This document shows positions 1 to 33,140 of a stretch of DNA of 52,221 bases, one piece after another. Origin of the DNA: a virus (taxonomy: Duplodnaviria; Caudoviricetes); the IMG/VR virus record IMGVR_UViG_3300024186_000001, positions 1-52,221 of that record; one strand, written 5' to 3'. Below the pieces are notes generated by a model. It did no database searches. It saw only the letters and a program-made list of their open reading frames with translations, and was not told where the DNA came from. Numbering within the stretch: the stretch's first letter is position 1; each line of letters begins with the position of its first letter. The translations under genes and the position numbers were made by a program.

Positions 1-127
1 GCTCAAGCACGCCGTTCATCCATGCCCGGATGTACCGCCGCAAGAACCGCACGTTTGGCGAGGGCATGTACAAGGCGATGGGTGCGTGCGACGAACTCTG
101 GAACTGGTTTAATTATCTGGAGGCCAC
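1..127. repeat. 127-bp direct terminal repeat (copy 1), circular-assembly overlap
   Basis: 1-127 is identical to 52095-52221, and the repeat falls inside the portal reading frame. Confidence 0.97.
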
Positions 128-1034
128 GCTTGCAGAGCGCGCTGCAAACGGGACGTGGGGCATCGACCGCAACGCCATTGAGCAACGCTGGCTCAACCAG
201 TTCCAAGGCAACTGGACTGACCTTCTCGACAGCGGCGTGGTCCCGCTTGAATCGGGGAACACAATCTCTCAGGCCATGCAATACTTCGGCCCGGACCCTG
301 AATCGTTGCAGGCCATTCGCGCGGCCAAGGATTCTCTAATGTCCATCATGGACACGTTCACGGGAATCAACGCGACGGTAGAGGGCAATGCCCCTGTGAG
401 CGGCACGGCGACGGGAGACAGTCTGCGAGCGAGGGCGGCAAGCAACATCATCGCCCTGCACAGCGCGAGATTCGGAGAGTTGTTCGTAAAGCCGTATCTC
501 ATTCAGTGCGCCCGTCTCGTGCGTGACTACTCAGCTGACCAAGAGATTGTTCCGATCAGCAACCATGCGGACATCAACCGGCTTGCTGATTATGACGAGG
601 AAACGTCCGAGCAGCTTTACACAGCCAACGCAGAGAAAAGAGAGTTGGCAATGCCGTTCCTCAAGCTGTTTGAGTTGAGGTCGTTCAGCGGCGACTTCGC
701 TGTTGAGCTACAGTCCGTGTCGAATGATGGAGGCCGCGCGATGCGCTCTCAGGGACTCAGCGAAAGCATTGGTCTGGCTGGTCAGCTTTCTCAGCAAATG
801 CCGGGGCGCGCGAACTTCGAGAGGTTCCTCATTCAGTTCATGCGCCTCAAGGGCGTCGAGAACCCGGAGCAGTTTTTCTACACGCCACAGCAGCAGGAGG
901 CGAACATGATGCAGAACGCTTCTATGCAGCAGATGTCGGGGGGCGGCGGCGGTGAACAGGACACAAGCACTCAGGGCATGGGCACGCCAGCAGCGCCCCC
1001 GAAGAACTACAATCCGATGGCGGAGCAGATGTAA
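1..1034 (+). CDS. Portal protein, C-terminal part (gene starts at 50930 and crosses the join; about 732 aa in total)
   Basis: ATG 30 corresponds to 52124, in frame with ATG 50930. Directly follows the terminase large subunit. Podovirus-portal-like motifs (PFIHARMYRRKNRTFGEG, TATG, Q/M-rich tail). Confidence 0.88.
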   Translation, partial: SSTPFIHARMYRRKNRTFGEGMYKAMGACDELWNWFNYLEATLAERAANGTWGIDRNAIEQRWLNQFQGNWTDLLDSGVVPLESGNTISQAMQYFGPDPESLQAIRAAKDSLMSIMDTFTGINATVEGNAPVSGTATGDSLRARAASNIIALHSARFGELFVKPYLIQCARLVRDYSADQEIVPISNHADINRLADYDEETSEQLYTANAEKRELAMPFLKLFELRSFSGDFAVELQSVSNDGGRAMRSQGLSESIGLAGQLSQQMPGRANFERFLIQFMRLKGVENPEQFFYTPQQQEANMMQNASMQQMSGGGGGEQDTSTQGMGTPAAPPKNYNPMAEQM

Positions 1035-1483
1035 TGGAACTCGAACCGGGACAGATTCGCGCCTACGCTCTTTCGCTCCAACTCGAACACGTTGGCGAGA
1101 ATCCGATCTGGACAGAGGCGATGAAGTGGATTGCCGAACAGAAGGACAGGGCGGAGAAGTCCGCGATCAATGCGCTGCGTCCGCCGCAATCCTGTCCATC
1201 GGATGCTCAATACCATCGCGGCGTGTGCGACGCTTACACGAATCTGGAAGCAAAACTACTGTCGGCTATCGAAGCCGAGCTAGGAGCATCGTTCCGTGAA
1301 TCTCAGGCTAAGGCCGCTGCCGGGAAGCAAGATAACAACAATTCTGGTGAGCAAGAGAGTGGAGAAGGTAGGCGACAGCGGTTTGGTGACGGAGGCGCTG
1401 CCGAGGGCAAAGAGCCGGGAGTGCGATCATTGTCACGGAGATTCCACGAACTGTCGCAGATGCAGAGGAACGGGGCGGATTGA
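1034..1483 (+). CDS. Hypothetical head-module protein (149 aa)
   Basis: TAATG coupling to the portal stop; helical N-terminal 90 aa with YHRG motif; 3' part overlaps the next gene by 188 nt. Confidence 0.7.
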   Translation: MELEPGQIRAYALSLQLEHVGENPIWTEAMKWIAEQKDRAEKSAINALRPPQSCPSDAQYHRGVCDAYTNLEAKLLSAIEAELGASFRESQAKAAAGKQDNNNSGEQESGEGRRQRFGDGGAAEGKEPGVRSLSRRFHELSQMQRNGAD

Positions 1484-2102
1484 AGTAGATTCGTCGCGTG
1501 ACGAAGTATTCAACGGCATGGTGTTGTGCCCCGATGGATTCGGCGGCGACATGAATCGCGGCGACTTCGTGTGCTTCAACGGTTCTGGCGATTTCACTGG
1601 CGACACGATGCTATGGAACTACCGGCTGGATATTTCACTCGGCGTTGTTGGCGAGCCGCTTCGCGTGTGGAACGGTCGCCACTTCGTTTCAACAGATATC
1701 GGCGATTGCGTGCTGTTCGCACATCGCGCTTGCGTGCTTGCTAGGCTCGACGATGAAGGGCCGTCGTATGACGAGCGCGAGCCTGCGTCCGTCCGCTCGA
1801 ATCCGCCTAGCGATCTGCCAGAGTCGCCGTGGCAGGTGTTAGACAATCGCGTTGTGGTTCTCATGCGACCGCGCGACACCGAAGGCAAGGCGGGCTCAAT
1901 CGTGGTTCCAGACGTGTATCGCAACACGTCGGATTGTGGTCATGTTCTTGCTGTTGGTCCGAAGGTAAAGGGGCTCACTCGCGGTGATTTTGTGTTGACG
2001 TGTTCGTGTCCAGAGAATGAGTTGCTGCGCGACGGTCAACGCTTCTGCATCGTGAAGCCTTGGGAAATACACTGCATCGGAGATATTTATGAATCCAAGT
2101 AA
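1296..2102 (+). CDS. GroES/Cpn10-like co-chaperonin, probably two tandem GroES domains with an inserted DnaJ-type Zn finger
   Basis: C-terminal VLDNRVVV...KAGSIVVPD...GHVLAVGPKVKGLTRGDFVL matches GroES. N-terminal MNLRLRPL...GMVLCPDGFGGDMNRGDFVCF resembles a second copy, interrupted by CDHC..CRRCRGTG. AGGAG lies upstream of the GTG. Confidence 0.78.
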   Translation: MNLRLRPLPGSKITTILVSKRVEKVGDSGLVTEALPRAKSRECDHCHGDSTNCRRCRGTGRIEVDSSRDEVFNGMVLCPDGFGGDMNRGDFVCFNGSGDFTGDTMLWNYRLDISLGVVGEPLRVWNGRHFVSTDIGDCVLFAHRACVLARLDDEGPSYDEREPASVRSNPPSDLPESPWQVLDNRVVVLMRPRDTEGKAGSIVVPDVYRNTSDCGHVLAVGPKVKGLTRGDFVLTCSCPENELLRDGQRFCIVKPWEIHCIGDIYESK

Positions 2103-3033
2103 TGCGCCGGAACAAGAGGTCCAGCCAGAGCAGCCGGACCCGAATGCGCTGGAGCAGGAAGCGCCAGCCGAAGAAGAAGTTGCCGCCGAAGGTGGCGCTG
2201 ATGATGCGCCCGGTGAACCAGAACAAGAGCCAGCAGCCGAGCAGGTTGTTCCTCCCGAGCAGCGCATGGCGCGCATTGAGGAAATGGTGGCCGAGATTCA
2301 CAAGCGGCCCATGCCCGCGCCCCCACCGCAGCCTTCGCAACCGCAGCAGAACGACGACACCTACGGCGACCCAGACCTTCGCAATATCAAGGCGAAGTTC
2401 ATGCAATCGCAGCAGGCAAGCGCGAAGCTGGCGGAGCAGATGGACTCTGATGATTTCGAGGCCCTGCCACCATCCAAGCGACGTGCGGTTGAGGCCCAAT
2501 ACAACTTCCATGTTTCGCGCGCGCAGCAAATGTACGCGGACTTTTGGGACAAGCAGCCAGTAGTTGCCGAGCGCGTTGTTCGTTCTGCGAACAGCAACGC
2601 CGCGTATCAGGAGACTGCTGGTTTCGCTCAGTTCCTCATTCACCACAACCCGGCGCTCAAGGGACGCGAGGCCGAGATTTACAAGTTCACTGTCGATAAC
2701 GGCGGGCCTTCAAACATCACGCCCTACTTCGCCGATGCGGCGTCGCTGGCCGCTGGCGTATTGAAGGCACTCGGCGGCGCGAAGAAAACAACTGCCGCTG
2801 TCGTGAAAAAGACTCAGACGAAGCAGCCGCCAGCGCCGATTGCAGGTGGCGGACTCGGCTCTCAATCGCGCGGAATCGAGAGGCCGACAGCGCAGCCGAA
2901 CGGAAGCAAGCTGACCGCGCAGGAATCGAAAGTTCTTGAGGGCGCTTTCATCGACCCGAACGACAAGCGTTACACCGTATCCCAACTGCGCGCCATCGCC
3001 GCAGAATTGAAGGAGCCAGCCCGTGCCAAGTGA
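2089..3033 (+). CDS. Putative capsid scaffolding protein
   Basis: Acidic E/Q/P-rich N-terminus, helical middle and basic C-terminus; lies between portal and capsid genes. Confidence 0.7.
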   Translation: MNPSNAPEQEVQPEQPDPNALEQEAPAEEEVAAEGGADDAPGEPEQEPAAEQVVPPEQRMARIEEMVAEIHKRPMPAPPPQPSQPQQNDDTYGDPDLRNIKAKFMQSQQASAKLAEQMDSDDFEALPPSKRRAVEAQYNFHVSRAQQMYADFWDKQPVVAERVVRSANSNAAYQETAGFAQFLIHHNPALKGREAEIYKFTVDNGGPSNITPYFADAASLAAGVLKALGGAKKTTAAVVKKTQTKQPPAPIAGGGLGSQSRGIERPTAQPNGSKLTAQESKVLEGAFIDPNDKRYTVSQLRAIAAELKEPARAK

Positions 3034-4322: not shown

Positions 4323-5303
4323 ATGTCGTCTTTCGATTCTGCCCTGATTGACCTCGCTACCTACCCGGCTGCGAAGCTGCTGCGTCCGCTCAAGTCTCTG
4401 GCCGAGAACACGGTCAACGACAAGAGTTACGACATGTTCGCCACGCGCCGCAAGGTCGCGGGCAAGTTCGCAACCGACATTGAAATGGCGGTTCCGGGGA
4501 TGCTGTCGCGCATGGAGCGTGGCTCGCTTCACCCGACTGTCACGACCGGCGTGGAATACACCAAGCAGTTTCAGGCGATGCCTGTCGGCGGCAAGGTGGA
4601 GCTTTACGAGCAGGATGTTCGCTACGCCGCTCAGGGACTTCCGGGCTTGATTGAAAGCACCCGCAACGCGCTCCCCACGTCGCTCAAGTTCTGGCTGGAA
4701 GTCGCGTTCATCGCCCCCGTCATCTACGGCTTACAGGGGATTACGAACCCGGCAGGCAGCGCGCCGTTCCTCGATACGCTTACGGGCGACGGCAAGAAGT
4801 GGTTTGCCGACAATCACACGTTCAAGTCAACGAACACGCTGACTGTCAGCAACATCCCGACAACGGACCTTCTGGCGAACTCGGCGGCGATCAACACGCT
4901 CCGCACGATTGCGCGCTCGATGCAGAACAACAGCGGGTTCTACCTGAATCTCGACCTCACGGAAATCATGTGCAGCAAGGACATGACGACGGCGCTCAAG
5001 CAGGTCATGCATTCGGAGTTCACGCCCGAGAACAACACGAACGCGCGCAACATCGCTCTCGAAGCGGCCCCGAACATCAAGATTCACGAGAACTCGCTTC
5101 TCCCGGCACAGTCGTTCTACACGCAGACCAACGCGCCGTCCGAGACGAAGTTGCAGTACGTCATCGGTCTGGAGCCGCAGGTTGACGACGAGTTCATCAA
5201 GGACCCGCGCAAGCGCGTTTACTACCTCTACACGGAACTGAACTTCCAGCCAGCAGATCAGGGCTGGATGAGCATGATTCCGAATCGGGCGAAGATTTCC
5301 TAA
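4323..5303 (+). CDS. Major capsid protein (HK97 fold, Mu gpT-like family)
   Basis: 326 aa, strong RBS and codon bias; GDGKKWFADNH motif typical of gpT-like capsid proteins; synteny. Confidence 0.85.
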   Translation: MSSFDSALIDLATYPAAKLLRPLKSLAENTVNDKSYDMFATRRKVAGKFATDIEMAVPGMLSRMERGSLHPTVTTGVEYTKQFQAMPVGGKVELYEQDVRYAAQGLPGLIESTRNALPTSLKFWLEVAFIAPVIYGLQGITNPAGSAPFLDTLTGDGKKWFADNHTFKSTNTLTVSNIPTTDLLANSAAINTLRTIARSMQNNSGFYLNLDLTEIMCSKDMTTALKQVMHSEFTPENNTNARNIALEAAPNIKIHENSLLPAQSFYTQTNAPSETKLQYVIGLEPQVDDEFIKDPRKRVYYLYTELNFQPADQGWMSMIPNRAKIS

Positions 5304-8406: not shown

Positions 8407-10035
8407 GTGGCCGGTGAAATCTCCTTCTCTGAGTTCCCGCCACCGCTGACGCGCGGTGATCGCAGCCAGTGCGGTTCCTTCGACGCGCGCAATTTGACTT
8501 ATGGCCCTTCGCGCACTGAGGGCGGCGCTCCATCGAATATCTCTCCGCGTCCCGGTACGCGCCAGCTAACGATTCTTCCAACCTCCAAGCCGGTCACGTC
8601 CACAACGCCGCCAACGCTGCTGCTCGACTCTGTGCATCTTCTCAAGCGCGTTGGGGGCCAACCGTTCTTCACCGTCTCGCGCAGGGATGGAAACCCGAAC
8701 CAGCCCGGATACGGAACTGTGTTGATGATTGGAGCCATCGCAGCCGTGGGAGGCAGCGGCGGATTCTCACCAGCAGAGCCGCCGACAATTCCGGTGCCGG
8801 TCCCAACGTGGGAGTTCAACGCCTCGACGCCGTTCATCCCCGAGGATGCTCCGGCTGAATGGGCGCAAGTCATCAACAGCGTGTTCACGGCAGACCCAAG
8901 CACGCTCGCAATCACGCAGCGCACGGCTCAGTTCGACAGCGTGCAATCGTTCGGAGCGGACGCTGCGGGCAACGTGTGGTATGCGCCAGCGACGGACAAT
9001 GGCGGCGGGTCTTGGACCGTGAACTTTCACTATCGAGACATGGACGGTGTTGATCACGGGCCACTTGGAAGCGGGCTCACGTTCGCAGACGGCTTCTATC
9101 AGATGATGGTCGCCGCGCGCCCGACAGACAGCGGCCTGTGGCTGATGGTGCAATCGAACGGTGGCGCTGGGCGTCTGTTTGACTTGTACGACTTGAACAC
9201 TGGCGACGGTGCCGCGACGATTGGGAATGTTATTGATACCGCGTCCGCCGTGTTCTCGTCGAACGGCGGCATGACGCTCATGCCAGACGGCGACTTGATG
9301 TTCGTGGGTGGCAACAGCAGCGATCACGAAACGAAGGCGTGGAAGATCGAGCCTCAGACTGGTGCGGTGCGCGCGAACTACCCTGTGGCTCTCATGCTGG
9401 GCGGCGGCATTCTAGGAATGGAGACTCCGTTCTCGCGCGTGGCCGCGTTGAAGGACGGGCGTGTGCTGATGGCTGCGTCCACGAAGGACGAGGGCATGGA
9501 CTCGTTTGCTGGTATCGTGGCTTACACGTTCGATGATGCTGGCGTTGTCGGCAATCCAGACACGTTCGTTGACCTCACAGCGTTGGTTTCAACTGACGGA
9601 TGGCTGACGACCTATAATCGCATTTGGTTCTCGCCTGCGTGGGACACGCTGACGCCGGACGCGGAGACTGGCAAGATGGTCGTGGTCGCTGGTGGTACGC
9701 TCACGTCACCCGGCGATTGGGCCATCAGCCATTCGTCGAACGGCACACTGACAGACATTACCGCCAACGTATTCAGCTATGGCGACGGCAAGATGTTCAC
9801 GTCAGACCAGACATCTGGCAACGTGCCTCTTTGGGCGAATACAGGGTCATTGTATCTCGGAATGAAGGACGGCAGCGCGGACAAGCCCTCTATCGTGGAA
9901 CTGAGCGCATCTACGGGCGCGGTGACTCGCTCGACCGTTGCCGACTCTTTGGCCGAGGAAGGCGCGCTACTCCTCAACTGCTTCGTGAACTACGACCCGG
10001 CGAACAGCTATCTTGCTACTCAGGTGGTGGGATAG
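8407..10035 (+). CDS. Tail protein: nozzle-like N-terminus fused to a beta-propeller-like domain
   Basis: GAGGT RBS; N-terminal ARNL..ISPRPG; GGSGG/Pro linker; the remainder is paralogous to 10038-11213. Confidence 0.65.
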   Translation: MAGEISFSEFPPPLTRGDRSQCGSFDARNLTYGPSRTEGGAPSNISPRPGTRQLTILPTSKPVTSTTPPTLLLDSVHLLKRVGGQPFFTVSRRDGNPNQPGYGTVLMIGAIAAVGGSGGFSPAEPPTIPVPVPTWEFNASTPFIPEDAPAEWAQVINSVFTADPSTLAITQRTAQFDSVQSFGADAAGNVWYAPATDNGGGSWTVNFHYRDMDGVDHGPLGSGLTFADGFYQMMVAARPTDSGLWLMVQSNGGAGRLFDLYDLNTGDGAATIGNVIDTASAVFSSNGGMTLMPDGDLMFVGGNSSDHETKAWKIEPQTGAVRANYPVALMLGGGILGMETPFSRVAALKDGRVLMAASTKDEGMDSFAGIVAYTFDDAGVVGNPDTFVDLTALVSTDGWLTTYNRIWFSPAWDTLTPDAETGKMVVVAGGTLTSPGDWAISHSSNGTLTDITANVFSYGDGKMFTSDQTSGNVPLWANTGSLYLGMKDGSADKPSIVELSASTGAVTRSTVADSLAEEGALLLNCFVNYDPANSYLATQVVG

Positions 10036-10037
10036 CC

Positions 10038-11213
10038 ATGTCACAGCCTCTCTACGAATACAACGTTGCAGAATCAGAGTTCTCGTCCATCAGCGAGGAC
10101 AGCGGAACCGCCATTGTCGGAACCGACGTGGAGGCTTACTGCTGGATGACGGTCACTGTCGGCGACCCGCCAGCGATTCCGATTACATCGGTTGCCTTCC
10201 AGCGCGTGAAAAGTGGCGTGATTGAGACAGTGGATATCCTTGATGGAAGCTGGTCTGCTGCGTCTCCGAACACCGTCGTACTTGGGAACGAATCTGGAAT
10301 CTTCATCGCGTTCTTCACCATCGCGGGAAGCACGGTCAACGTCGCGCTCTACAAGCTCATCCCTGAGGATGGATTGAAGCTGATAGACGCGAGCGTTGTC
10401 ACCTACTCGACGGGGACCAGCGACGGCATTTGCGGCATGACGTGGTGCGGCGACACGCAGACGGACCCTGACCTCGCAATCCTGATGCACCACAACGGCA
10501 CGGTGAAGATTTACAAGGTGGACCCCGCGAACGGCAACGTGCGCGGCGGGTATCCGCAGACACTCACCTATCCGGGCAGCGGCGCAATCGTCGTGCGCGA
10601 CACGACAAGCATCGCGTACTGCCGTGACGGGTTCATCTACTTCTTCGCCTACGTTGGTCCGTCATCTGCCGTCACGAAGGCTGGCATTGTCGGATATAAG
10701 TTGGGCGTGGCGAGCATCGCAGATTCACACGTTCTTGTGGACCTCACGACGCCGACCAACTCGTTCGGATTCACGTCGGTTGATTGGGGCGTGGTGAACG
10801 ACGAAATGGGCGACTGGTCGCACATCGTGACGTTCAACTGCAACCCTCTCGACGTGCGCGAGAGGCAGGTCCTCATTAGCGAAATCACGGGCTCGACTGT
10901 GACCGTGGACGTTGACGCAGCGTTTCTGCGACCAGCAACGGCGACGGGGAAGCCAGCGTTCGGCGCGCGAGGTATGGATGAAGGGTTCGTGTATGTGGGC
11001 GGCATCTATTATGACGACGGCGACCCGGACAATATCGTGTCCAATCCCGCGCTGTTTCAGTTCTCGACGGCTGGCGCTCTGGCAGATACGATTCTTTCGG
11101 AAGATGTCACGAGCGATGGGTTGACGTGGCGCTCGCCGGGGCAAACGGGCCAAGGCTTTGTCGATCCTAGCGGCGCGTGGGCGCGAACGCAGCTTAGGAG
11201 CCTCCCGAAATAA
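10038..11213 (+). CDS. Beta-propeller-like tail protein, paralog of the C-terminal part of 8407-10035
   Basis: Start placed at ATG 10038 after GGTGG; KIYKVDPANGNVRGGYP versus AWKIEPQTGAVRANYP. Confidence 0.7.
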   Translation: MSQPLYEYNVAESEFSSISEDSGTAIVGTDVEAYCWMTVTVGDPPAIPITSVAFQRVKSGVIETVDILDGSWSAASPNTVVLGNESGIFIAFFTIAGSTVNVALYKLIPEDGLKLIDASVVTYSTGTSDGICGMTWCGDTQTDPDLAILMHHNGTVKIYKVDPANGNVRGGYPQTLTYPGSGAIVVRDTTSIAYCRDGFIYFFAYVGPSSAVTKAGIVGYKLGVASIADSHVLVDLTTPTNSFGFTSVDWGVVNDEMGDWSHIVTFNCNPLDVRERQVLISEITGSTVTVDVDAAFLRPATATGKPAFGARGMDEGFVYVGGIYYDDGDPDNIVSNPALFQFSTAGALADTILSEDVTSDGLTWRSPGQTGQGFVDPSGAWARTQLRSLPK

Positions 11214-13750
11214 TGGCTGCTCACGACCTCGTTGAAATAATCCACGTCGGCTACCGCGACAGCCTTTACGTTGAGTCGCAGAGGCTCGCGACAGACGGGC
11301 ATCCGATTGTCGTCGCTCCGGCGAACGGCTCTGCGGTCGCTGGCGTTGTTGCACTGACAGGGGATTACCAAACAGTTTGGCTTTCGTGGCAGGACACGGG
11401 CGGCAACGTCAAGCCGCTCACCATCCCGATTCCCTACTTTGAAATCGCTGTGCCCGACGAAGGATTCGACCCGTCTGTGGAGACGCTCGCGGCCTCTCCC
11501 ATCGGCCCCGGCATCAATGTCAGCGTGCAGGCCGTCACGCGATACTACTCGTTCGGCTGGGTAGCTGATGCGCTCAACCTCGGCATTGACGACGCCTATC
11601 AGCCCATTGGCCGCGTCATGCAATTCGTGTATCAGCAGGCTCCTCCCGGCGCGGAAACCTCAGACTGGCGCGGCGTCGTCACGCTCTCGAACGATACGGT
11701 CGTTCCGCTCAAGCAAGTGAAGTGGACGATTGATGCAAACGCATTCACGGCTCCGACGAACGTTCCGGGCGTGGCGACATGGAAGCTGGCGATGTATGTG
11801 TTCACCACGCTCCCGAAGAACGTACTCGAATTGAACGCTCAGGGCGGTGCGTACATCGGCGAAGTGGACCCCGTTGCTGGCGGTGTCATCATCGACTCGG
11901 GCCAGAGCGCCAACACGTTCTACCCTGAAATGTATATCAACGCCAGCGAGTCGCGCACCGTGTTCTCGTTCGGCAACCAGTTTGTGTGGGCGGGCGGAAG
12001 CGATAGGTGGCAGTCGCAGCTTCTCAAGGCGAGCGACGGCTCGTATCCGCAGGTAATGACTCCGCTCGACGATGACGACGACCCTATTCTCTACGAGTTG
12101 TGGGTCCGCAAGAACGGGTCAACGACGGACCCCGCAATCGACCCCATTGATGAGGGCGAGGATTACGAGTGGCCGCAGGCGGTCATCGGCAAGCGCATCT
12201 ACATCGCTGGCCGCGACGACGTGTGCATCATCGAGGGCATACTGCCAAGCACGGACACTAGCGACAGCGGCGAATACACAATCCTTCGTTTGGCCGCTCC
12301 GCTTGTGAGCGCAATCTCTACGCCCGTGGACTTCCGCATCAGCGGTCAGAGCATGGTGAAGATTGGGCACCCGGACGTTCGCATGAGCGAGAAGGTGCCA
12401 GCATCGCTGCAACTCGACGCCACGGGGTTCATCAACAATCCGATCACGGGCGGGATGGCGGACGCGGAGCAGCTTTACTTCATCGTGTGTTCCAACAACG
12501 AAATGGCGAAGGTCATCAACGCGCCGACAGCGTTCGCGGCTACTGGCAACCTTGAAGGCGTTACGCCGCCGTATTTCCTGAGCGTCTCGACGGACGTTGG
12601 ATGCGTCTCGCAGCAGGCGCTCATTCGCGGCGCATCGAAATATATTATGGGATTCAGCGACGGTCGCGGCCCGTGGATATTCGATGGGTCGTCACCGCGC
12701 TTGCTGGACGAGGCGCGCAACCTCGCGCAGTTCTATGATGGACTCACTGAGGGCCAGAAGGCGAACGCGAGCGGCGCGTTCTCGTCACGCCTGAATCTTG
12801 CGATGTGGTGCTTCCCGAACATCAACGGCGACCTGTCCGCGCAGATGCACTTCAATGCGTGGGGGCAGGGAAAGATTCTCGTGTTCGACTTCAACACCAG
12901 CACGCTCTCGTGGTTTGAAATGATTGGCTACTCTGTGCAGGCGCTCACAACGATTCAGCAGTACGAGAAGCTCGACGACTACGACCATGTTGGCGACACC
13001 ATCATTGGGGCGTTGCAGGATGGCAGCATCGTTGAGTTCAACGAACTGCTGTTCGGCGACCTGTCCACGGACCCTGAGAATAACAAGGTCATGGGGGGCA
13101 CGGTGACGGAGAAGGCAGATACCGACACGGTGCTTACGATTCTATTCCAGCATCGCATCAACGAAATCGCGGTGTTCTTTGGGCAGATGTCGGAGTGGAT
13201 TGAGAACGCGATGGTTGTTATCATTGGCCGCGACCCTTCGTATCCAAGAGACTCGACATTCAGCGCGCGCCTCGGTGCTAGTGTACCGCTTACTCAGGTT
13301 GTGCAACCGGGGAACATCATCAAGCTCGCGTCAACGTGGAACGAAGTGCAGGTCGGTGACATCGTGTGCATCGCGCCGATTCGTATGTTGTTCACTGGCA
13401 GCGACTTGCGCAGCATCAAGACCTACTCTGCGATTCAGAGCGTGGACAATGTGGCGGCGGACTTGCCAATTGTGACACCACAGGATGAGCCGCCCGCAGA
13501 GGAAAACGGAACGCTGTGGCTGGATTGGAGATTCCGAGTTACGGTGCTGAGTGGCGGGAACACAACGACGCCGCAGAGCAATTCCAAGAGCGTTGCGACC
13601 GTGCTGCGCGGAGCCTCGTTGCAGCAGCAGAGTTCGTTCGCGCTCAGGCCGAACGTGGCTGGCAAGAGCGTGCGTGTGCAGATAGACTCGTTCGTGCCGC
13701 CTGACAAGGGACTGACGATTGACCAAGTTGATTTCACCGCGAGGGGATGA
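11213..13750 (+). CDS. Tail nozzle / tail tubular B / packaged-DNA stabilisation protein
   Basis: 845 aa; DVGCVSQQAL, GPWIFDG and ILVFDFNTSTLSWF propeller motifs; TAATG coupling. Confidence 0.7.
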   Translation: MAAHDLVEIIHVGYRDSLYVESQRLATDGHPIVVAPANGSAVAGVVALTGDYQTVWLSWQDTGGNVKPLTIPIPYFEIAVPDEGFDPSVETLAASPIGPGINVSVQAVTRYYSFGWVADALNLGIDDAYQPIGRVMQFVYQQAPPGAETSDWRGVVTLSNDTVVPLKQVKWTIDANAFTAPTNVPGVATWKLAMYVFTTLPKNVLELNAQGGAYIGEVDPVAGGVIIDSGQSANTFYPEMYINASESRTVFSFGNQFVWAGGSDRWQSQLLKASDGSYPQVMTPLDDDDDPILYELWVRKNGSTTDPAIDPIDEGEDYEWPQAVIGKRIYIAGRDDVCIIEGILPSTDTSDSGEYTILRLAAPLVSAISTPVDFRISGQSMVKIGHPDVRMSEKVPASLQLDATGFINNPITGGMADAEQLYFIVCSNNEMAKVINAPTAFAATGNLEGVTPPYFLSVSTDVGCVSQQALIRGASKYIMGFSDGRGPWIFDGSSPRLLDEARNLAQFYDGLTEGQKANASGAFSSRLNLAMWCFPNINGDLSAQMHFNAWGQGKILVFDFNTSTLSWFEMIGYSVQALTTIQQYEKLDDYDHVGDTIIGALQDGSIVEFNELLFGDLSTDPENNKVMGGTVTEKADTDTVLTILFQHRINEIAVFFGQMSEWIENAMVVIIGRDPSYPRDSTFSARLGASVPLTQVVQPGNIIKLASTWNEVQVGDIVCIAPIRMLFTGSDLRSIKTYSAIQSVDNVAADLPIVTPQDEPPAEENGTLWLDWRFRVTVLSGGNTTTPQSNSKSVATVLRGASLQQQSSFALRPNVAGKSVRVQIDSFVPPDKGLTIDQVDFTARG

Positions 13751-14481
13751 CGATGGCCGCAGACACAAACGCAGACATTGTAGTAGACAAGTCGGCGCAA
13801 CTGCCGTCCGGTGACATCGTGCGCGATGCCTTCACGGGGAACAAGGGCAGCGCCGAAAAGATGTGGATTTGGTTCTTCTCACTTTCCGCGTTGCTCACGG
13901 CGACGATTGCGAAGGTGAACGCGATTACGACCACCCCAGCGATTCAGAATATCGTGAACCCGCAGACCGGCGTGCTGAATGGATGGGTTGCAATTTCGGC
14001 TGCTGACTGCAATCCGGCAGCGGCGACGACGAACGTTGCGGCATGGACAACGGTAATCGAAACAGGAGAAGCGTTCTCTGCCCTCACCGTTACGCCCTCC
14101 GCTGGAACCGCGCAGATGTTCGTGCCGATTCGCGCGGGGAAGGGAACGATTCTCGACGCCATCAACGTGAAGTGGAAGGCGAAGGACAACGATGGTGGTA
14201 CGAACCCCGTTACCCTCGAAGCCGTGATTGTCGGCGAGGATTTGACAGATACGAGCGGTGCTGGATTTCAGCCTATTGGCGGGAACACGGTCCCCATCGG
14301 ATACAACGGTACGAGCGACACGGTTCGATTCGATGGCTTCACATTGAATCTTCCGGTGACGTTGCAGGAACATTGGCGGTATGCGGTGCTGCTCTACTTC
14401 ACAACGGGACTCGCAAACACGAACGGGTGGGACGTGGGTTTCTACGGGGCTGAGATTCATTACACCAAGCGTTTCATCTGA
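13747..14481 (+). CDS. Tail-associated protein with a C-terminal domain paralogous to the 7574 fibre
   Basis: ATGA overlap; shares NGW..S, IL(D)..(V).W and HYT.RF termini. Confidence 0.72.
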   Translation: MTMAADTNADIVVDKSAQLPSGDIVRDAFTGNKGSAEKMWIWFFSLSALLTATIAKVNAITTTPAIQNIVNPQTGVLNGWVAISAADCNPAAATTNVAAWTTVIETGEAFSALTVTPSAGTAQMFVPIRAGKGTILDAINVKWKAKDNDGGTNPVTLEAVIVGEDLTDTSGAGFQPIGGNTVPIGYNGTSDTVRFDGFTLNLPVTLQEHWRYAVLLYFTTGLANTNGWDVGFYGAEIHYTKRFI

Positions 14482-14548
14482 AACACCGCTTGATTTTGGA
14501 ATCGCTCGCGCCATGAATCACGCGCGATAGGCTAGGAGACTCGCACCA

Positions 14549-15730
14549 ATGAACATCACGTCGCCGATGATGAACCAGTCGGGCCAGTTTCGCGGGAACG
14601 CGCGACCGGGCCTTGGCGCGGGGCCGAAGCCTATGCCCGTTGGCCCCAAGCCAGCGCAGCCGATGGGTGGAGGCGGCGGGTTCTTTTCGATGCCTCGCGG
14701 CAACAGCGCGTTTGGGCTCGCTGGTGGTAACGGTGCCCCGCAGCGCATGGGTGGCGATGCTGGACTCCAGAAGCCGGGAATGCAGCCTTATCTTGGCGGG
14801 GCAACTCAGGCTGGCGGATTGAACACCGGTGGCGCTCCGCTCATGGGCAGGATGCCGATGCCGCCGCCGCTCAAGCCGTTGCAGGGTCCGGCTCAGGCAA
14901 TGCCCGGTGGTGGCGCGCTCAACACGCAGCCGCCTTCGCCAGCGCCCGGTTGGAATCCAAACTTCAACCCCATCGGCCAGCAGTGGCAGCAGCCTAGCCC
15001 TTCGCAGATGGGTGGTGGGCCGACGGGGGGCTCGTATGGGCCACCGGCACAGATGCAGGCACCGCCGCCGTCTCCGTTTGCCGCTCCTACTGGTGCGGGT
15101 GCTTATAGCCCGATGGGGGCTGGCGCTCACACTGCGAATCAGGGCGGCGATATGCCCGCGAGTCCATTCGGCCCCGGCATGATGGAGGCACCGCAGCAGA
15201 CGAAGGGTATGGAGGGACCGACTGGCGTTGGTGGTGGCGTGCCTCCGTTGAACACTCCCGGTGGCCCAACTGGCGGAATGTATGGACCGCCCGCGCAGGC
15301 ACCAGCGCCGATGCCAGCACCGCCGCCCTACGACCCAAGCTGGCAGGGGCATTGGGGCGACAAGGAGTGGAACAAGCGCCCGACTCAGCAGATGCCGCCC
15401 GCTGGTCCGGGTGGGACGCCGCCGGGGCAGCAGGCAGGTGGTTCGTCAAGCAGCCCGTTCGGAGCAAATGACCCTCGTTCGGCACCGGGCTATCACCCTA
15501 CGCCGCCTCCAATGATGGGCAAGCCTGCTGCGGAATACGACCAACTCAGGCAAAATCGCCTGCAACAGCACAAAGATAATCAGGTCATTTACGACAACAC
15601 TGGCTACCCGTGGAGGCGTGGTGATTGGGAGAAATACTCATACGGTAATCATGTGTATGATGCGCAGCGCAAAAAGGCAGAACAAATCCACGGTTCGTGG
15701 TTTTACAACCAACTGCACAAGACTCCATAA
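14549..15730 (+). CDS. Pro/Gly/Met/Gln-rich low-complexity protein (putative internal virion protein)
   Basis: AGGAG RBS; 393 aa; about 330 aa of low complexity, then a W/Y-rich C-terminal domain. Confidence 0.72.
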   Translation: MNITSPMMNQSGQFRGNARPGLGAGPKPMPVGPKPAQPMGGGGGFFSMPRGNSAFGLAGGNGAPQRMGGDAGLQKPGMQPYLGGATQAGGLNTGGAPLMGRMPMPPPLKPLQGPAQAMPGGGALNTQPPSPAPGWNPNFNPIGQQWQQPSPSQMGGGPTGGSYGPPAQMQAPPPSPFAAPTGAGAYSPMGAGAHTANQGGDMPASPFGPGMMEAPQQTKGMEGPTGVGGGVPPLNTPGGPTGGMYGPPAQAPAPMPAPPPYDPSWQGHWGDKEWNKRPTQQMPPAGPGGTPPGQQAGGSSSSPFGANDPRSAPGYHPTPPPMMGKPAAEYDQLRQNRLQQHKDNQVIYDNTGYPWRRGDWEKYSYGNHVYDAQRKKAEQIHGSWFYNQLHKTP

Positions 15731-17475
15731 TGCCAACAGCCCCCCCCACCACAGGCGGATTTTGGGGACAGTATCCGCCAAAGTCTCCGACGCCCCCGCC
15801 CGTCTATCATCCACCGGGCACGACGGGGCAGTATGTCCCGCCGCCGCACTACACAGACGGCCCGCCGCCGGGGTATCCTCGCGTTCCGGGCGCTCCTACC
15901 TATCCGACTGGCGGCACGGGTGGTGGCACCTATGGCAGCGGGAGCGGCGGTGGCGTTCCGCAACAGTGGAACCCCGCGCCTCCTCCAACGCCTTACCGTC
16001 CGGGCACGCCGTACCAGCCCGGTCCAAGCTACCAGCCTTCCGCTCCCGGCCCCGGCTACACTCCGGGTACGCCGTACCATGCGCCTGCCGCTGGCACGCC
16101 GTACACTCCGGGGGCTCAGTGGCAACCAACCGCCGCTGGGCCAGCGTACACTCCCGGCCCTCAGTTTAGGCCGCAAGCTGGACAGGACTACACTGCTGGC
16201 CCTCAGTGGCGTCCAGATCGCGCTACTAACTACAACTTCGGCAAGAGCATCGGCCAGTTCGGACAGGTTTACAACACGTTCGGGCAGGACCGCGCCGCCT
16301 TCATCGCGGAGAAGGAGAACGCTGCGAGGCTGGCAGAAGCCGCCGCTCGCTACGGAGACACGCTTACGAATCAGGCGCAAGAAGCTGCTGGCCGTGACGT
16401 GAACAACTACATGGCCGCTGGTGGTCGCCGGTTCGGTGCCGCTGGTGCGTTGCTGGCTGGGGGCGCGTCGAACGCGACCATGACGCCTGCGCTTGCCCAA
16501 GCAGCCGGTATCCGCATGGGCGGCGAGAACGATGCCTTCCAAGGTCGCCTCGCGGCCACGCAGGGCCAGTTGGGGGCCACGCAGGGTCAGCTTGGGGCGA
16601 CTCAGGGCTTGCTCGGCGCGCAGTCGGCTGATGCCGCGAATCAGCTTGCCGTAACTGGCATGAACAACCAGTTCGGCGGGCAGGCGTTCCAGATGGGGCA
16701 GCAGGACCGCCAGTTTGGTGCTGGACTCAATCAGCAGAACGTGGCGATGGCGAACCAGTACGGGGCGATGGGACACCAGATGGGCCAGCAAGATCGCCAG
16801 TACGGTGCCGATGACGCCTACCGCAAATGGCAGGCTGAGAACCAAATGGGGTATCAGGGCGCGGCGCTTGGACAGGCAGACCGGCAGTATGGAAACGACG
16901 CTTCCTATCGCAACGCTCAGATGGCGAACCAGAACGCGCAGTTTGGGGCATCGCTCGGCCAGAACGACCGCCAGTACGGGGCAGACAACGCCTATCGCAC
17001 ATGGCTCTCGCAGAACCAACTCGGTTTGCAGGGCGCGCAGATGGGAATGCAGGACAAGCAGTTCGGCGCGAACTTCAATCAGCAGAACCAGCAGTTCGCT
17101 TCCAACGACGCCTTCCGCCAGTGGCAGCAGGCGAACCAGTTTGGGTTGCAGGGCGCTGAGTTCGGGGCGAACAACCAGTATCGGAACACGCAGCAGTCAC
17201 TCGACGAGAAGTACCGCCGGGACGCGATGGCGCAGCAGCAGCAGCAGTTCATGGCGGAAATGCAACTCAAGTTGAAGCAGGCTGGCGTGCAGGCCCCGTG
17301 GTGGGCACTTAGCGAGCAGCAACTCCTACAGTTGGGTATCGACCCGATCGCAGTGGCCTTCTACAAACGGATGCAGGTGCCAACGAGCGATGGCGTTCCT
17401 CAGTTCCAGCCCAACGACCCTTGGGGGTCTAGCTGGCAGTATTCGCACACCGCTGGCTGGCCGGGAGGCGTCTAA
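15730..17475 (+). CDS. Putative DNA ejection/pilot protein with Pro-Tyr repeats and Q/N/G 29-aa repeats
   Basis: TAATG coupling at both ends; repeats are visible in the translation; located in the internal-protein block. Confidence 0.72.
   Translation: MPTAPPTTGGFWGQYPPKSPTPPPVYHPPGTTGQYVPPPHYTDGPPPGYPRVPGAPTYPTGGTGGGTYGSGSGGGVPQQWNPAPPPTPYRPGTPYQPGPSYQPSAPGPGYTPGTPYHAPAAGTPYTPGAQWQPTAAGPAYTPGPQFRPQAGQDYTAGPQWRPDRATNYNFGKSIGQFGQVYNTFGQDRAAFIAEKENAARLAEAAARYGDTLTNQAQEAAGRDVNNYMAAGGRRFGAAGALLAGGASNATMTPALAQAAGIRMGGENDAFQGRLAATQGQLGATQGQLGATQGLLGAQSADAANQLAVTGMNNQFGGQAFQMGQQDRQFGAGLNQQNVAMANQYGAMGHQMGQQDRQYGADDAYRKWQAENQMGYQGAALGQADRQYGNDASYRNAQMANQNAQFGASLGQNDRQYGADNAYRTWLSQNQLGLQGAQMGMQDKQFGANFNQQNQQFASNDAFRQWQQANQFGLQGAEFGANNQYRNTQQSLDEKYRRDAMAQQQQQFMAEMQLKLKQAGVQAPWWALSEQQLLQLGIDPIAVAFYKRMQVPTSDGVPQFQPNDPWGSSWQYSHTAGWPGGV
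16555..16617 (+). repeat. 3 x 21-bp coding tandem repeat (ATQGQLG)
   Basis: gccacgcagggccagttgggg / gccacgcagggtcagcttggg / gcgactcagggcttgctcggc. Confidence 0.85.
16696..17090 (+). repeat. 87-bp (29-aa) degenerate coding repeat, 4 full units plus a partial unit
   Basis: G(Q/M)xD(R/K)Q(F/Y)G begins at 16696, 16783, 16870, 16957 and 17044. Confidence 0.85.
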
Positions 17476-18836
17476 TGGCTTGGAATCCATACGAGTTCGG
17501 TGGCTCATCGCAGGCCGGATACGATCCCGTTAGCCAGTGGGGGATGCCTACGACGGCAATGGCGCTCTCGCAGCGCAGGCCGTTTACGCGGGACATGGGC
17601 GCTCAGGTGATGCGCGGTGCGCCAGACACTGGCCTTGGTGCTGACACCATGAGCCGATTCAATGACTTCCTGAATCCGCCGCCGACAGGTCCGTTGAACG
17701 TGCCTAATCCTTGGGACAACCAAGAGAGCGTGACTGATATGCAGCCGCCAGATTGGGCCGACCCTACGGCTGGATACGGGATGCAATTCGACCCAAGCCA
17801 GTTTGCGCACGCACAGGCGTCGCCCCAGATGCACGAGCCAATGCCCCCGCCACAGTTCGGGAGTTCACCGCATGACTTTGGTGGACCGCTGGAGCCGATG
17901 GGCGGCGCAGAGTCTCCGTTCGATTACTCGCAGAATCCTGTCATCGGTGGATTTAGCGGGAACTACGCCGCTGACCATCTTGAGGACATGAACTCTGGCG
18001 AGCCTGTTCCGCCCGTGGACTACGGCAACGGTGGCTACACTGACGTTGGCACGATGCAATTCGGCGACAGCCCTGTGATTGGCGTAGTCGAAAAGACGGC
18101 TGGCCGCGAGGAGCGCATCAAGAAGGCCGATGAAGGCTACGCGAAGCAGCAGGCAGAGGACGAGCGCGCGCAGTTGATTCACGACGCGGAAGGCTACGCT
18201 CAGAAAGCAGCCAACGCGAAGTCGAAAGAGGAAGCAGCCGCCTACGGAACAATCTCTGGGAACCTGTTGAAGCTCGCGGACAACAAGGACAATCAGGCGT
18301 TGCAGGTCGCGGCGCTGCGGGCGGAAACGGAAATGAAGAAACGCGCCTCCATTGAGAGCGAGGGCGACAAGAACCGCGATGAACGCAAGGCTCGCGCGGC
18401 AGACACTCGTAGCTGGCGCGAAGCAGACACCGCCCTTCGCAAAGAAATGGCAGAGACGCGGGATGCAACCACGCGCGCCGGGATTGCCAATCGTGCTATC
18501 TCTGACAACGGCGCGTTCGGGACTCTTGCGATTATGACAGCCCGCGCAATGGCAAGCGGTGCTTCCACGCCAGCAGAAAAGAAGAAGGCTCAGGACGAAG
18601 TTGCGATGATGGAGAAGCGCCGTAGCGAACTGATGGACGTTGCTGGAAGCGTTGCGGCTCCGGCTGCTGGTGGGCGTAAGGCCGTTATCTCTGGTGGCCC
18701 CAAGCCGCTTCCTCCCGGCGTGACGAAAGAGGCGGCGCTTGCAGATGCGCGGAAGAAGATTGCCGAAGGTAAGTCTCGCGCTGCCGTTCAAGCAGTCTTG
18801 GCCGACTACGGGTTGTCGCTCGACGGCGAGGAGTAA
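17475..18836 (+). CDS. Putative internal virion/ejection protein (453 aa)
   Basis: GGAGG RBS; acidic disordered N-half, charged coiled-coil C-half and a small helical C-terminal module. Confidence 0.7.
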   Translation: MAWNPYEFGGSSQAGYDPVSQWGMPTTAMALSQRRPFTRDMGAQVMRGAPDTGLGADTMSRFNDFLNPPPTGPLNVPNPWDNQESVTDMQPPDWADPTAGYGMQFDPSQFAHAQASPQMHEPMPPPQFGSSPHDFGGPLEPMGGAESPFDYSQNPVIGGFSGNYAADHLEDMNSGEPVPPVDYGNGGYTDVGTMQFGDSPVIGVVEKTAGREERIKKADEGYAKQQAEDERAQLIHDAEGYAQKAANAKSKEEAAAYGTISGNLLKLADNKDNQALQVAALRAETEMKKRASIESEGDKNRDERKARAADTRSWREADTALRKEMAETRDATTRAGIANRAISDNGAFGTLAIMTARAMASGASTPAEKKKAQDEVAMMEKRRSELMDVAGSVAAPAAGGRKAVISGGPKPLPPGVTKEAALADARKKIAEGKSRAAVQAVLADYGLSLDGEE

Positions 18837-18842
18837 CGCGCC

Positions 18843-21800
18843 GTGGGCACTGGCCTGTTCGACAATCTCCCCGACGACTCTCCAGCGACCGGACTCTTTG
18901 ACAGCCTAGAGCCGGAACCTGCTGGCACGGGGCTGTTCGATTCTCTCGAATCTCCCGAGGACGCTGGCCTCCGCCGCCAAGCTGCGGTGAAGGCGATGCC
19001 TTCCGTGCAGGCAGCGCACGAGCGCACAGTCGAATCGTCGCCTAGCCTCCCGCACTGGAACACGCCCAACCCGTATTGGACCCACTTCGCCGAGGGCGTC
19101 GCCGCTCAGGGCGTGGACCGCGAACTCGCTGCGCAGTATCCGACCGGCCAGCAGCCTATCGACGTTACCAAGATTCAGAACCCTGTCGGGCGCGGCATGG
19201 CGGAAGTAGGCGCTGACATCGCTGGCGCGCTTCCGGGGCCGCTCGGCTCGTCTGCGCAGAAGGTCTTTCGCACGTCGCTCGACGAACCGGGCGCGGGCCA
19301 GCGTTGGGGCAAGCCGGTCCAGTCGCTCGTCAAGGGCATCGGTGAGTTCGCCGCTGGCGCTGCCGCTGGCGGTGTCCCCGGCCTGTTTGCTACAGGCGCG
19401 CTCGAATCCTTGGGCGAGACTGGCGTGCCATTCACGGGGCAAGGCGCTGCCGAGGACACCAAGACCATCGGCAAGGCGGCGGCGATGGGCACCGTGGCGG
19501 CGTTCGTGCTCCCGGCACTCAACGCCTTTGCGCAGAAGGTTGGCGGCAAGGCGTTCGACGCTGTGGCCCCGAAGATCGCGCAGTCCCTCGCGGAGAGTCC
19601 GTCCGCTCGCAAGGTTGCGCGGGAGTTGGCGGCTGTAGGCATTGCTGACATTCCTGCAACGCTCGGGTTCCTTGAGGCTCAGGGCGTGAAGTGGCGGGAC
19701 TACTACAAATATCCGGCGGGAAGCCCTGAGCGGGACGAGTTGAACCGGCAGATTGCCTTGGCGTTCGGCGGTTCCGTGGGCGCTAGGGTCGGATTGGGGC
19801 TTGGCGAGGCGCTGACACACGCTGCGCGCTCCAAAGCCAGCAGCGAGGCAGGAAACGCGGTTCCTGAGGCTTCTGTGGAGCCTCCTATCCCAACCGAAGG
19901 AGTCGGCGCTAATGCCACTCAAGAAGTCGTCCAGCCAGCAGGCATTCCGGCAGAACGTCCGGGCGGAAATGTCAGCGGGGAAACCGCAGAAGCAGGCGGT
20001 GGCGATAGCCTACTCCCAGAAGCGGGCGGCGCAGCGGGGGCACCAGAAGAAGGGGCGGTAACTCTCGACTCCACGGTTGATTGGGGGCCGCGCACAGAGA
20101 CGGTTCGCAAGGCTATCGAGGATGCTCAGGCGGCAGGACATACGCCTGAGACGTTCGAGAGGGCTGCGCCTGCAATCGTGCGGGCGATGGGCGGCCCAGA
20201 GAATCTTGCGCGACTGTGGGACGCCGCGCAGGGCGTGATTGACGATACGCCGAAGGTCGCGGAGCAGGCCCCGGAAGTTTCACGTGAAACTATTTCTGAG
20301 CCTCCCGCGCCTGAGCCGGTTGCGCCAGAGCCCGAAGTCGTCGCTACGCACGAGCCCCAGCCGCTCGCAGAGACGGACGCGCCGGTTGTGTCCCGCCTCG
20401 CCAATCGCGCGAACGCTGCCATCGGCAAGCCCGAGAACATGCACCACGTCATCACGGACTGGCGGCAGGCAATTGAGGAAACGGCTGGCAGGGATGCATC
20501 GGAAGCCGAGAACGATGTTGTGAAGGCGCTCCAGCGGTCCATCCGTGCGGAGAACGCCAATCCCGGAGCCTCGCGTCTCGCCAAGGCGAAGCAGTGGCTC
20601 GACAACCGCTCGGAGCAGGATGTCGCTCGCAAGGCGCTGACCTTCTACATCGAAGCCTACGACGGCAACATGGACTATCTCAAGAACATGCTCGCCACCG
20701 CAGAGAACACGCGCTCTACCACGGCGCGGTCCTTCATCCAGCAGATTGCCAGCAGCGGCCCCAAGTTCATCGCTGAGAGTCGTCTTGGTCGCACGACGAA
20801 CGACGAGGCCATTGAAGCCATCAAGTACGCGATAGACAACCCGGCGAAGCTGGCAGACGCGGCGGCGAAGTATCGGGAAATCACGGGCGAGAAACTTGGC
20901 CGTCTGCGGTCGCACGGATTCAATGTTGCAGAGGCTCCGAACTTCGTGCCGCGCGAGATTGATTTCACTGAGGGGCCGCTCGCCGCCTACATCGAAGGCG
21001 CTGCCGGTGGGGATGCGTCCACGGGCGCGAAGCACCGCATGAACCGCAAGTTCTCCCGGCTGATTGATACCATCGCGGCAGAGAACAAGCCTCTCAGTAT
21101 TGACGCCATCAAGAACCTTTCCTCCTACGTTCGCGCGAGTGAAATGGGTGTCCGCACGCGCCAGTGGCAGAACAAGCTGTTTGACATCGCAGACCCCGAG
21201 ACGGGCGAAGCCATCGTAAAGGCTCCAACCTACGAGACGCGGCGCGATGAGAAGGGCTCGCAATACATCAAGCCCGAACCGGGCTACAAACTCGCGTCGT
21301 TTCCTGACGGCCAGCAAGTGTTGGTGAATGACGCATTCGCCGGGCTCATTGACACCCTCACAAAGCCGGACTCGCTGGCTAACATGCCATCGATGCGTCG
21401 CCTCATGCAGACGAACGGGACGCTCAAGAACATCATGCTTATTTTCGATACGTTCCACGGCGCGCGCGGGGCATTCATGGGGACGATGGCTCGCTTATCT
21501 GGATTGAAACTTCCAAGTCTTGCCGAACCAGTGCGAGTGAAGGCTCTTTCCAAGACCTCGTTTGGCGAGCTACGCGGCCAGTTGGAGCGTGGCGAAATCA
21601 CGCCGGAGCAGCACGGCGAAATGGTGGCCGACAAGCGCATCCTAAATATCATGCAGGAAAACGGCGTAAAGACAGGCCGCATTTCTGACGCCCTCCACAC
21701 GGAGTGGGTTCGCAAGGTACCAGTTCTAGGGTCCGTCAACAAGTTCGTGTTCGATGAGTTGTTCCCCGCCGTCATGTCTGACATTAGTTTGCTAGAGTTC

Positions 21801-33078: not shown

Positions 33079-33140
33079 GGCTTGTTGGCCGTGTCAAGTG
33101 GCATCTTGCGATTTATTTCGCAACCGCGCGCCGCGGTGGG

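Follow-up and report, generated by a model that had tools for sequence, protein, structure and literature searches.

A putative phage co-chaperonin with a C-terminal GroES domain, a probable second GroES-like domain and an inserted zinc knuckle

The virus record IMGVR_UViG_3300024186_000001, a complete record of 52,221 bp with direct terminal repeats (the whole of which is referred to below as the window), carries in its head-gene region a gene (positions 1296–2102) for a protein of 268 amino acids (aa), which we refer to as the window protein. Its C-terminal half contains a diverged GroES (Cpn10) domain, and its N-terminal half contains a pair of CxxCxGxG-type cysteine motifs, the zinc knuckle, set within a region that is itself probably GroES-like. 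Our best reading, to which as a whole we would give an even chance, is that the gene codes for a phage co-chaperonin-like protein with two GroES-type domains per chain and a single zinc knuckle in the N-terminal domain. An earlier reading of the same DNA (the original prediction) had proposed a tandem GroES with an inserted DnaJ-type zinc finger, and the anatomy it described is essentially right. The coordinates of the features discussed are collected in Table 1.

The family to which the window protein belongs is tiny. An exhaustive search of 1.84 billion representatives returned only three related clusters, P0002, P0003 and P0004 (E values of 1e-9 to 4e-9 and 30–32% identity to the window protein); the family comprises the window protein and these clusters, which have 5, 4 and 1 members. 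A word-index search with the query A1 found P0002 and the window's own protein only. No relatives were detected by tblastn in isolated phage records, nor in IMG/VR viral contigs (with the window protein, A1, P0016 and P0013 as queries), JGI metagenome contigs (P0016 and A3) or GTDB genome contigs (P0013). The longest cluster members, P0013 (277 aa) and P0016 (279 aa), are 28–29% identical to the window protein and align to it from residue 1, retaining both the N-terminus and the two zinc motifs.

The last 90 or so residues had been aligned with GroES by eye, an assignment that the profile searches confirm. The Pfam Cpn10 model (PF00166) matches residues 181–261 over its positions 4–92 of 93 (E = 1.1e-4), at 22.5 bits and thus narrowly above the cut-off of 21.1 bits; a six-frame Pfam search of the window places Cpn10 at 1836–2078 with 24.8 bits. 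The gene product also matches PHROG 3188, ‘co-chaperonin GroES’ (E = 1e-4), and the family profile matches both the GroES of PDB entry 8wuw (E = 6.8e-7) and the Cpn11, Cpn20 and Cpn23 chains of PDB entry 7ekq (E = 1.8e-5 for Cpn20). The best matches of the window protein in the PDB, the PHROGs and the Atlas are all co-chaperonins, and its nearest matches outside the family are seven single- or multi-domain GroES proteins. Moreover, the mobile loop ‘..GSIVVPD..’ pairs with the ‘..GGIVIPD..’ of GroES, and a Gly-Gly/Ser-hydrophobic tripeptide is present ahead of the barrel core (‘..GKAGSIVVPDVYRNTSD..’, against ‘..SAGGIVIPDSAKEKS..’ in GroES); this tripeptide of the GroES mobile loop is the element that binds GroEL. 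The C-terminal half aligns with the short, viral-type GroES, and the 10-residue roof insert of a canonical GroES protein, P0008, is missing from it. Judged from these matches, residues 181–261 make up a Cpn10 domain, diverged and without a roof but with a mobile loop of the normal kind.

That the N-terminal half is a second, more diverged GroES, as was also claimed, finds support from a family profile and none from the window sequence taken singly. The profile was built from four sequences and compared by hhalign with a target made of GroES sequences and the family's own C-terminal halves. In local mode, residues 68–99 align with GroES residues 38–69 (E = 7.4e-5, probability 62%, score 30.95), pairing ‘G.V.....GD.V.F’ of the N-terminal half with ‘G.VlAVG....GD.V.F’ of GroES; column shuffles score 10.3 ± 2.1 with a maximum of 16.9, and none of 150 reaches the observed value. 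In global mode the similarity is colinear over 90 columns, with a score of 22.4 against 2.6 ± 2.1 for the shuffles (again reached by none of 150; P = 2.9e-4), and the alignment places the first strand and the mobile loop of GroES before the knuckle and the core after it, the knuckle being an insertion. With the target restricted to nine outside GroES domains, the profile scores 24.0 in local mode (E = 0.0017, probability 16%), and with the family's own C-terminal halves as the target it scores 29.9 (E = 1.6e-4, probability 50%); 43 control segments of 156 aa from the other proteins of the phage score 10.2 ± 2.4, with a maximum of 20.3. Taken alone, the N-terminal half of P0013 keeps the register of the profile, with a score of 21.8 (E = 0.0037). 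Pfam signals below threshold in the relatives run in the same order as in GroES: residues 17–35 of P0013 match positions 9–27 of the Cpn10 profile (E = 0.19), and residues 80–106 of P0016 match positions 42–66 of ADH_N, a family with a GroES-like fold (E = 0.046), a region of ADH_N that the C-terminal half of the window protein matches as well. For residues 1–160 alone, the language-model neighbours do not differ from those of the whole protein, being viral Cpn10 clusters (0.84, with 171 shared features), a value below 0.9 that we treat as a lead only. The evidence for GroES likeness in this half is moderate, and we consider it rather probable that residues 1–155 form a second GroES-like barrel. 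If they do, the barrel probably carries two insertions, a knuckle region of about 30 residues at the junction between mobile loop and core and a Trp-rich block, also of about 30 residues, in which W107, L111, L115, G119, W125 and G127 are invariant in the family alignment.

Several observations weigh against a co-chaperonin with two GroES-type domains. As a single sequence, the N-terminal half of the window protein does not pick up GroES (E = 0.16 at a score of 12.8, with a different register), and the N-terminal halves of P0016 (17.1) and P0004 (12.2), also taken alone, fail or align in other registers. Pfam Cpn10 finds no second place in the protein at E ≤ 10, the HHsuite probabilities are modest (in global mode 18%, 8% and 3%, beside the three local values given above), and the significant core of the N-terminal half is only about 30 residues long. 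The C-terminal halves of P0013 and P0016 miss Pfam Cpn10 at E ≤ 1, and that of P0004 falls under the cut-off. AlphaFold2 returned no usable model of the whole protein (four-row alignment, mean pLDDT 32.8) or of residues 1–156 (six rows, mean pLDDT 36.5). Beyond the question of the fold, a sevenfold ring cannot be filled by whole subunits of two domains each, and the link to the head module comes from one genome, that of the window. As to AlphaFold2, its low confidence says nothing about either fold, because the C-terminal half, which Pfam recognizes, also received no usable model (pLDDT of 25–42 over the C-terminal part). When GroES sequences were added to the alignment of the N-terminal half with MAFFT, they went to the C-terminal halves of the relatives and not to the N-terminal half. 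Complex prediction of the N-terminal half versus the C-terminal half, with zinc, gave scores of 0.00, 0.37 and 0.01 against a mark of 0.32, which is no evidence either way.

The knuckle, CDHCHG-x4-CRRCRGTG, lies just after the mobile-loop-like segment of the N-terminal half, where the original prediction had put it, and it is both translated and conserved. P0002/P0013 and P0003/P0016 have CxxCxGxG-x6-CxxCxGxG at the same place, and all four cysteines are kept in the three of three family lineages whose N-terminal half is known (P0004, as called, begins downstream). The strict pattern CxxCxG..CxxCxGxG occurs once when the window is read in all six frames and never in 200 shuffled windows. The description of this element as a DnaJ-type zinc finger is apt for the type of motif and its conservation and inapt for the DnaJ Cys-rich domain proper: the Pfam model DnaJ_CXXCXGXG (PF00684), with a cut-off of 32.7 bits, gives 13.9 bits for the window protein (E = 0.066) and 20.1 and 20.5 bits for P0013 and P0016 (E = 8e-4 and 6e-4), all under the cut-off, and no J domain was reported in the Pfam scan of the window protein at E ≤ 1. 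The family profile matches the DnaJ Cys-rich domain of PDB entry 1exk with an E value of 0.0011; its matches to anti-TRAP are weak (E = 0.017–0.6), and those to the zinc sites of Q antiterminators likewise. Two consecutive CxxCxGxG motifs that form one Cys4 site are the arrangement found in anti-TRAP. Because there are two motifs and not four, the knuckle can form one predicted Cys4 zinc site, and not the two of DnaJ; as far as its motifs allow it to be classified, it would act as a single zinc centre of DnaJ or anti-TRAP does, and it stands outside the DnaJ Cys-rich domain family. AlphaFold2 reached some confidence only here, where it modelled residues 41–60 as a hairpin (pLDDT 60–78). The protein has 13 cysteines, as had been counted, of which nine are not conserved, the conserved ones being the four of the knuckle; the relatives have only 5–6 cysteines in total. 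Since cysteine richness is therefore not a family trait, the suggestion that the protein senses redox state is without support, and we regard it as weak. Elsewhere, translation of the window in six frames gives four more loose CxxC...CxxC pairs, at 43029 (+), 25130 (−), 29461 (+) and 41754 (+), the last adjoining the HNH gene; loose pairs number 5 against 0.6 expected in shuffles, and some of them may fall in non-coding frames.

A start downstream of the zinc finger, which by the terms of the original prediction would refute it, is what the public collection calls: there the gene is listed as 194 aa (P0001), beginning at M75 (ATG 1518), with the zinc motif omitted. This truncated call arises because the overlapping ORF of 149 aa (P0019) was itself called as a gene. 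If the collection were correct, the 149-aa ORF would be a real gene over 1296–1483 and the zinc motif an artefact of an untranslated frame, and there is something to be said for this: both P0001 and P0019 are listed as called genes, codon and GC3 statistics are ambiguous between the frames in the overlap 1296–1483, and codon statistics are poor for the 1296 frame in 1390–1450. However, the frame of the GroES-like gene opens at 1284, so that 1296 is the first possible start, and the GTG there is preceded by a well-spaced AGGAG, which at the same spacing also precedes the starts at 3684, 4323 and 18843; neither ATG 1518 nor the other internal candidates have a Shine-Dalgarno sequence at a usable spacing. 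Moreover, the window protein, P0013 and P0016 have in common the N-terminus M.L.L[RK]P.P[GR]S[RK]..[GT][VI]L[VI], and the 20-residue N-terminus and the motif pair are conserved at an overall identity of only 28–29%; nor does the strict motif arise in shuffled sequence. The calls themselves disagree, since near-identical cluster members have been given three different starts (183, 240 and 279 aa in one cluster, 223, 263 and 277 aa in another, up to 96 residues apart), which makes the start calls in this family unreliable. Because of the AGGAG, the N-terminus common to the relatives and the conserved motif pair, the full 268-aa form is almost certainly the translated product, and a start at ATG 1518 is very improbable indeed. 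A frameshift fusion of the ORF that begins at 1034 to the 1296 frame was considered and dropped; it would need a +1 or −2 shift, and the relatives begin at the same Met.

Two other accounts keep the 268-aa product and differ in what it is taken to be. In one, only the C-terminal domain is GroES, and the N-terminal 155 residues have another fold that happens to share the G.V...GD.V hairpin motif; the zinc-stabilized N-terminal half would then be an adaptor, tethering a heptameric GroES ring to a head protein, to the exterior of GroEL or to unfolded substrate. The single Cpn10 domain seen by Pfam and the silence of the N-terminal half as a single sequence both fit this account, and so does the length of that half, which exceeds GroES by 60 residues and includes the conserved Trp-rich block, without a counterpart in GroES. 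An unrelated architecture, P0011, moreover shows that a zinc module followed by one GroES exists as a layout. Against it stand a profile similarity that is colinear over some 90 columns and above all of the 150 shuffles, and an N-terminus in which a GroES-like ‘[KR]P’ first strand leads into a G-[GS]-hydrophobic loop; the Atlas neighbours of residues 1–160, a lead only as said, are viral Cpn10 clusters. We think a single GroES with an unrelated N-terminal fold unlikely. In the other account, the protein has no co-chaperonin role: small GroES-like beta-barrels would have been put to another use in a protein of head assembly or structure that has no contact with GroEL. It might, for example, assist the scaffold or the portal, or be a minor head protein, the gene lying at a position that in many phages belongs to a protease or a minor head protein. 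The position of the gene, directly after the portal gene and ahead of a scaffold-like ORF, is in keeping with such a role, the Cpn10 score is barely above the cut-off with the C-terminal halves of the relatives below it, and the GroES-like fold does occur in proteins that are not chaperones (the ADH_N match has an E value of 0.05). The C-terminal half nevertheless retains a mobile-loop signature that aligns with the GroES ‘GGIV.PD’, and the uniformly co-chaperonin character of the top matches in the PDB, the PHROGs and the Atlas, like that of the seven GroES proteins nearest to the family, speaks for a chaperone function. We therefore hold a purely structural role to be improbable, more so than a single GroES domain.

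Under the two-domain co-chaperonin reading, the protein would be made alongside the head proteins and would cap the GroEL of the host, replacing the host GroES or mixed with it; capping of the host's GroEL is proposed because a search across the window shows that this complete phage encodes no Cpn60/GroEL of its own. The folding chamber would thereby be tailored for the phage capsid or portal protein, as with T4 gp31. The knuckle would roughly triple the length of the GroEL-binding loop of the N-terminal domain, loop and knuckle together spanning about 50 residues, and with so long a loop the knuckle would be expected to sit at the rim between lid and GroEL, a place from which it could raise the lid or make contact with GroEL or the substrate. 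Both halves are without a roof insert. How chains of two domains could close a sevenfold ring is suggested by analogy with PDB entry 7ekq, which holds one Cpn11, two Cpn20 and one Cpn23 chain. The Cpn20 and Cpn23 chains have two domains each, which together with Cpn11 makes seven. Mixed rings are thus one solution to the mismatch, and here the mixing could possibly be with host GroES. We can picture, as an improbable elaboration, three tandem chains and a single subunit of host GroES (or four chains, one domain of which stays out of the ring) forming a hybrid lid of seven domains, in which zinc-stiffened loops of about threefold greater length would strut up the roofless lid and so enlarge or vent the chamber for a capsid or portal protein that GroEL-GroES is too small to take. 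By analogy with the DnaJ zinc centre, the knuckle might also hold unfolded substrate, uniting Hsp40-like and Hsp10-like elements in one protein.

A close parallel to the proposed function is the phage GroES of T4 gp31 and PHROG 3188, a lid for the host GroEL that is made with the head proteins of a phage lacking GroEL. Like the window protein, gp31 has no roof hairpin and a longer GroEL-binding loop; it is described as 14% identical to GroES, with loops of 22 as against 16 residues, no roof loops and a larger chamber suited to the capsid protein (PMC6318259). The window protein differs from GroES of the gp31 type in having two domains per chain instead of one, in its length (268 aa as against ~95–111 aa) and in the knuckle inside the loop of the N-terminal domain; furthermore, the function of gp31 has been demonstrated by experiment, that of the window protein being a prediction. 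For the virioplankton GroES proteins of Marine et al. 2017, tandem or fused forms, fusions and zinc are not mentioned in the main text, as far as the portion available extends (PMC5649160). The proposed layout, with two Cpn10-like domains head to tail, is that of Cpn20 of chloroplasts and apicoplasts (Cpn21; CPN20 and CPN23 of Chlamydomonas), which poses the same sevenfold mismatch. Compared with Cpn20, the N-terminal domain of the window protein is far more diverged, has two insertions and is of viral origin, and since the similarity to the Cpn20 of 7ekq is confined to the C-terminal half, the duplication would be independent and not orthologous. The knuckle shares its CxxCxGxG motif type with the DnaJ Cys-rich domain (PF00684, 1exk) and with anti-TRAP (PF15777, 3lcz), but in comparison with the former it has two motifs and not four, one zinc site, and is embedded in another domain. 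A comparable insertion has been described for the DNA polymerase of HMO-2011-type phages, where a partial DnaJ domain with a two-motif CXXCXGXG lies between the polymerase's own domains (PMC9038755); the carrier there is a DNA polymerase and not a co-chaperonin.

Tandem Cpn10, which the original prediction had named as a chloroplast architecture, is indeed that of Cpn20, called ‘chloroplast-specific’ in a review (PMC5780408), but it is not confined to it. P0009 (307 aa) is a metagenomic protein with three Cpn10 stretches, P0008 (150 aa) has two, and P0011 (177 aa, from a 92.5-kb contig) has two DnaJ-type CxxCxGxG motifs and a further zinc ribbon N-terminal to a strong Cpn10 (E = 1.4e-18). All three match the C-terminal half of the window protein, and GroES proteins with several domains or with a zinc module are thus not limited to plastids. 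They are distinct from the window protein in that no knuckle lies inside their GroES-like domain, their Cpn10 is of the canonical kind, with E values of 1e-18 to 1e-49, and no alignment with the N-terminal half is seen for any of them. The zinc ribbon of P0011 (KCELCGEPMPQGEEMF..) recurs in viral contigs at L003 4562–5044 and L005 7932–8270, joined there to unrelated sequence, and on this evidence looks like a mobile module; the P0011-like loci L003–L005 were rejected as relatives, as they share only this small ribbon and are without GroES. When P0011 was compared with phages by tblastn, all 11 records that came up matched its GroES part alone. Searches of the full-text literature (supplements not covered) turned up neither a tandem GroES in phages nor a GroES domain with a zinc knuckle inside it, in line with the original prediction, which knew of no description; the combination of a C-terminal GroES, a probable N-terminal GroES-like domain and an inserted knuckle was likewise not found described.

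The gene had been placed between portal and scaffold. The portal gene does lie upstream, although the 149-aa ORF intervenes, and the ‘scaffold’ is an ORF of 314 aa, so named from its position and composition, that has no Pfam or PHROG family match and overlaps the 3′ end of the GroES-like gene by 14 nt. The 149-aa ORF, whose first base is the last of the portal stop codon, shares 188 nt with the GroES-like gene; no homologue and no Pfam or PHROG family was found for it, and its first ~40 codons score as coding while its tail is of low complexity. The portal assignment derives from matches to PHROG 332 (E = 2.4e-11), PHROG 1216 (E = 3e-4) and, under the cut-off, SU10_portal (E = 1.2e-5). The record is apparently cut within the portal gene, though it is classed as having direct terminal repeats, and the collection lists it at 52,235 bp, against 52,221 bp here. 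Two further ORFs separate the 314-aa ORF from a weakly capsid-like ORF, which has no match in the PDB and none in phages by tblastn, so that its assignment as capsid is weak. The terminase gene, the portal gene, the GroES-like gene and the probable capsid gene are on one strand, with ends that overlap or abut.

Table 1. Positions of the GroES-like gene, the parts of its product and the neighbouring head genes in the window
Feature	Residues	Positions	Strand	Basis or remark
Whole gene, two-domain GroES-like protein (second domain probable) with zinc knuckle		1296..2102	+	268 aa plus stop, GTG start
Shine-Dalgarno sequence AGGAG		1282..1286	+	9 nt ahead of GTG 1296 (-14)
N-terminal strand (M.L.L[RK]P.PGS[RK]...[VI]L[VI]) and mobile-loop-like segment (..SGLVTEA..)	1-42	1296..1421	+	Conserved with P0013, P0016
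Zinc knuckle, two CxxCxGxG-type motifs (C43, C46, C53, C56)	43-60	1422..1475	+	Motif scan, conservation
Core of N-terminal half (G74.V76 ... G89-D90.V92) and family-specific Trp-rich insert	61-156	1476..1763	+	hhalign, family alignment
Acidic, Pro/Ser-rich linker	157-180	1764..1835	+	Poorly conserved, length varies in family; no family match
Cpn10/GroES domain with mobile loop, without roof hairpin	181-261	1836..2078	+	Pfam PF00166
Large terminase		49322-50929		PHROG 979, E = 8e-8; 23-24% identity to Gordonia phage terminases
Portal ORF		50930-52219, then 3-1034	+	After terminase; exits window at 3′ end and re-enters at 5′ end
149-aa ORF (P0019)		1034-1483	+	Between portal and GroES-like gene; called gene in public collection
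314-aa ORF, acidic, Pro/Gln-rich; putative scaffold		2089-3033	+	Position and composition
Weakly capsid-like ORF		4323-5303	+	Mu gpT (Pfam) E = 0.05; PHROG E = 0.01-0.02

No close relative of the phage, which has a G+C content of 59.8%, was found among isolated phages by tblastn. Its tail module is essentially unannotatable with the Pfam and PHROG libraries: large structural ORFs at 8407–22922 (+), among them ORFs of 1359 aa (18843–22922) and 845 aa (11213–13750), match no family of either. A replication and recombination module is spread over 30861–33097 (−), 41762–42655 (+) and 43960–46445 (+) and includes AAA_24 (E = 5.5e-26), a PD-(D/E)XK nuclease (E = 4e-19) and an HNH endonuclease (E = 1.7e-6), as well as an HTH_36 protein and a DnaB-type helicase (E = 1e-22), whose ORFs, as listed, overlap by ~200 nt. 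The sole tRNA of the phage is a tRNA-Gly (anticodon TCC) at 43403–43478 (+).

With a family this small and an N-terminal fold that is only probable, the value of the finding is limited for now. Automatic gene calls have cut this GroES-like family at varying internal starts and have thereby hidden its zinc module. GroES lids encoded by phages, T4 gp31 among them, provide the textbook example of a virus that adjusts the folding machine of its host, and tandem Cpn10 has hitherto been treated as a speciality of plastids. If our reading is true, a viral tandem with a knuckle in its GroEL-binding loop would offer a natural experiment on how chamber size and substrate range depend on the geometry of the lid and the length of the loop, and it would also show how a two-domain subunit fits a sevenfold ring.

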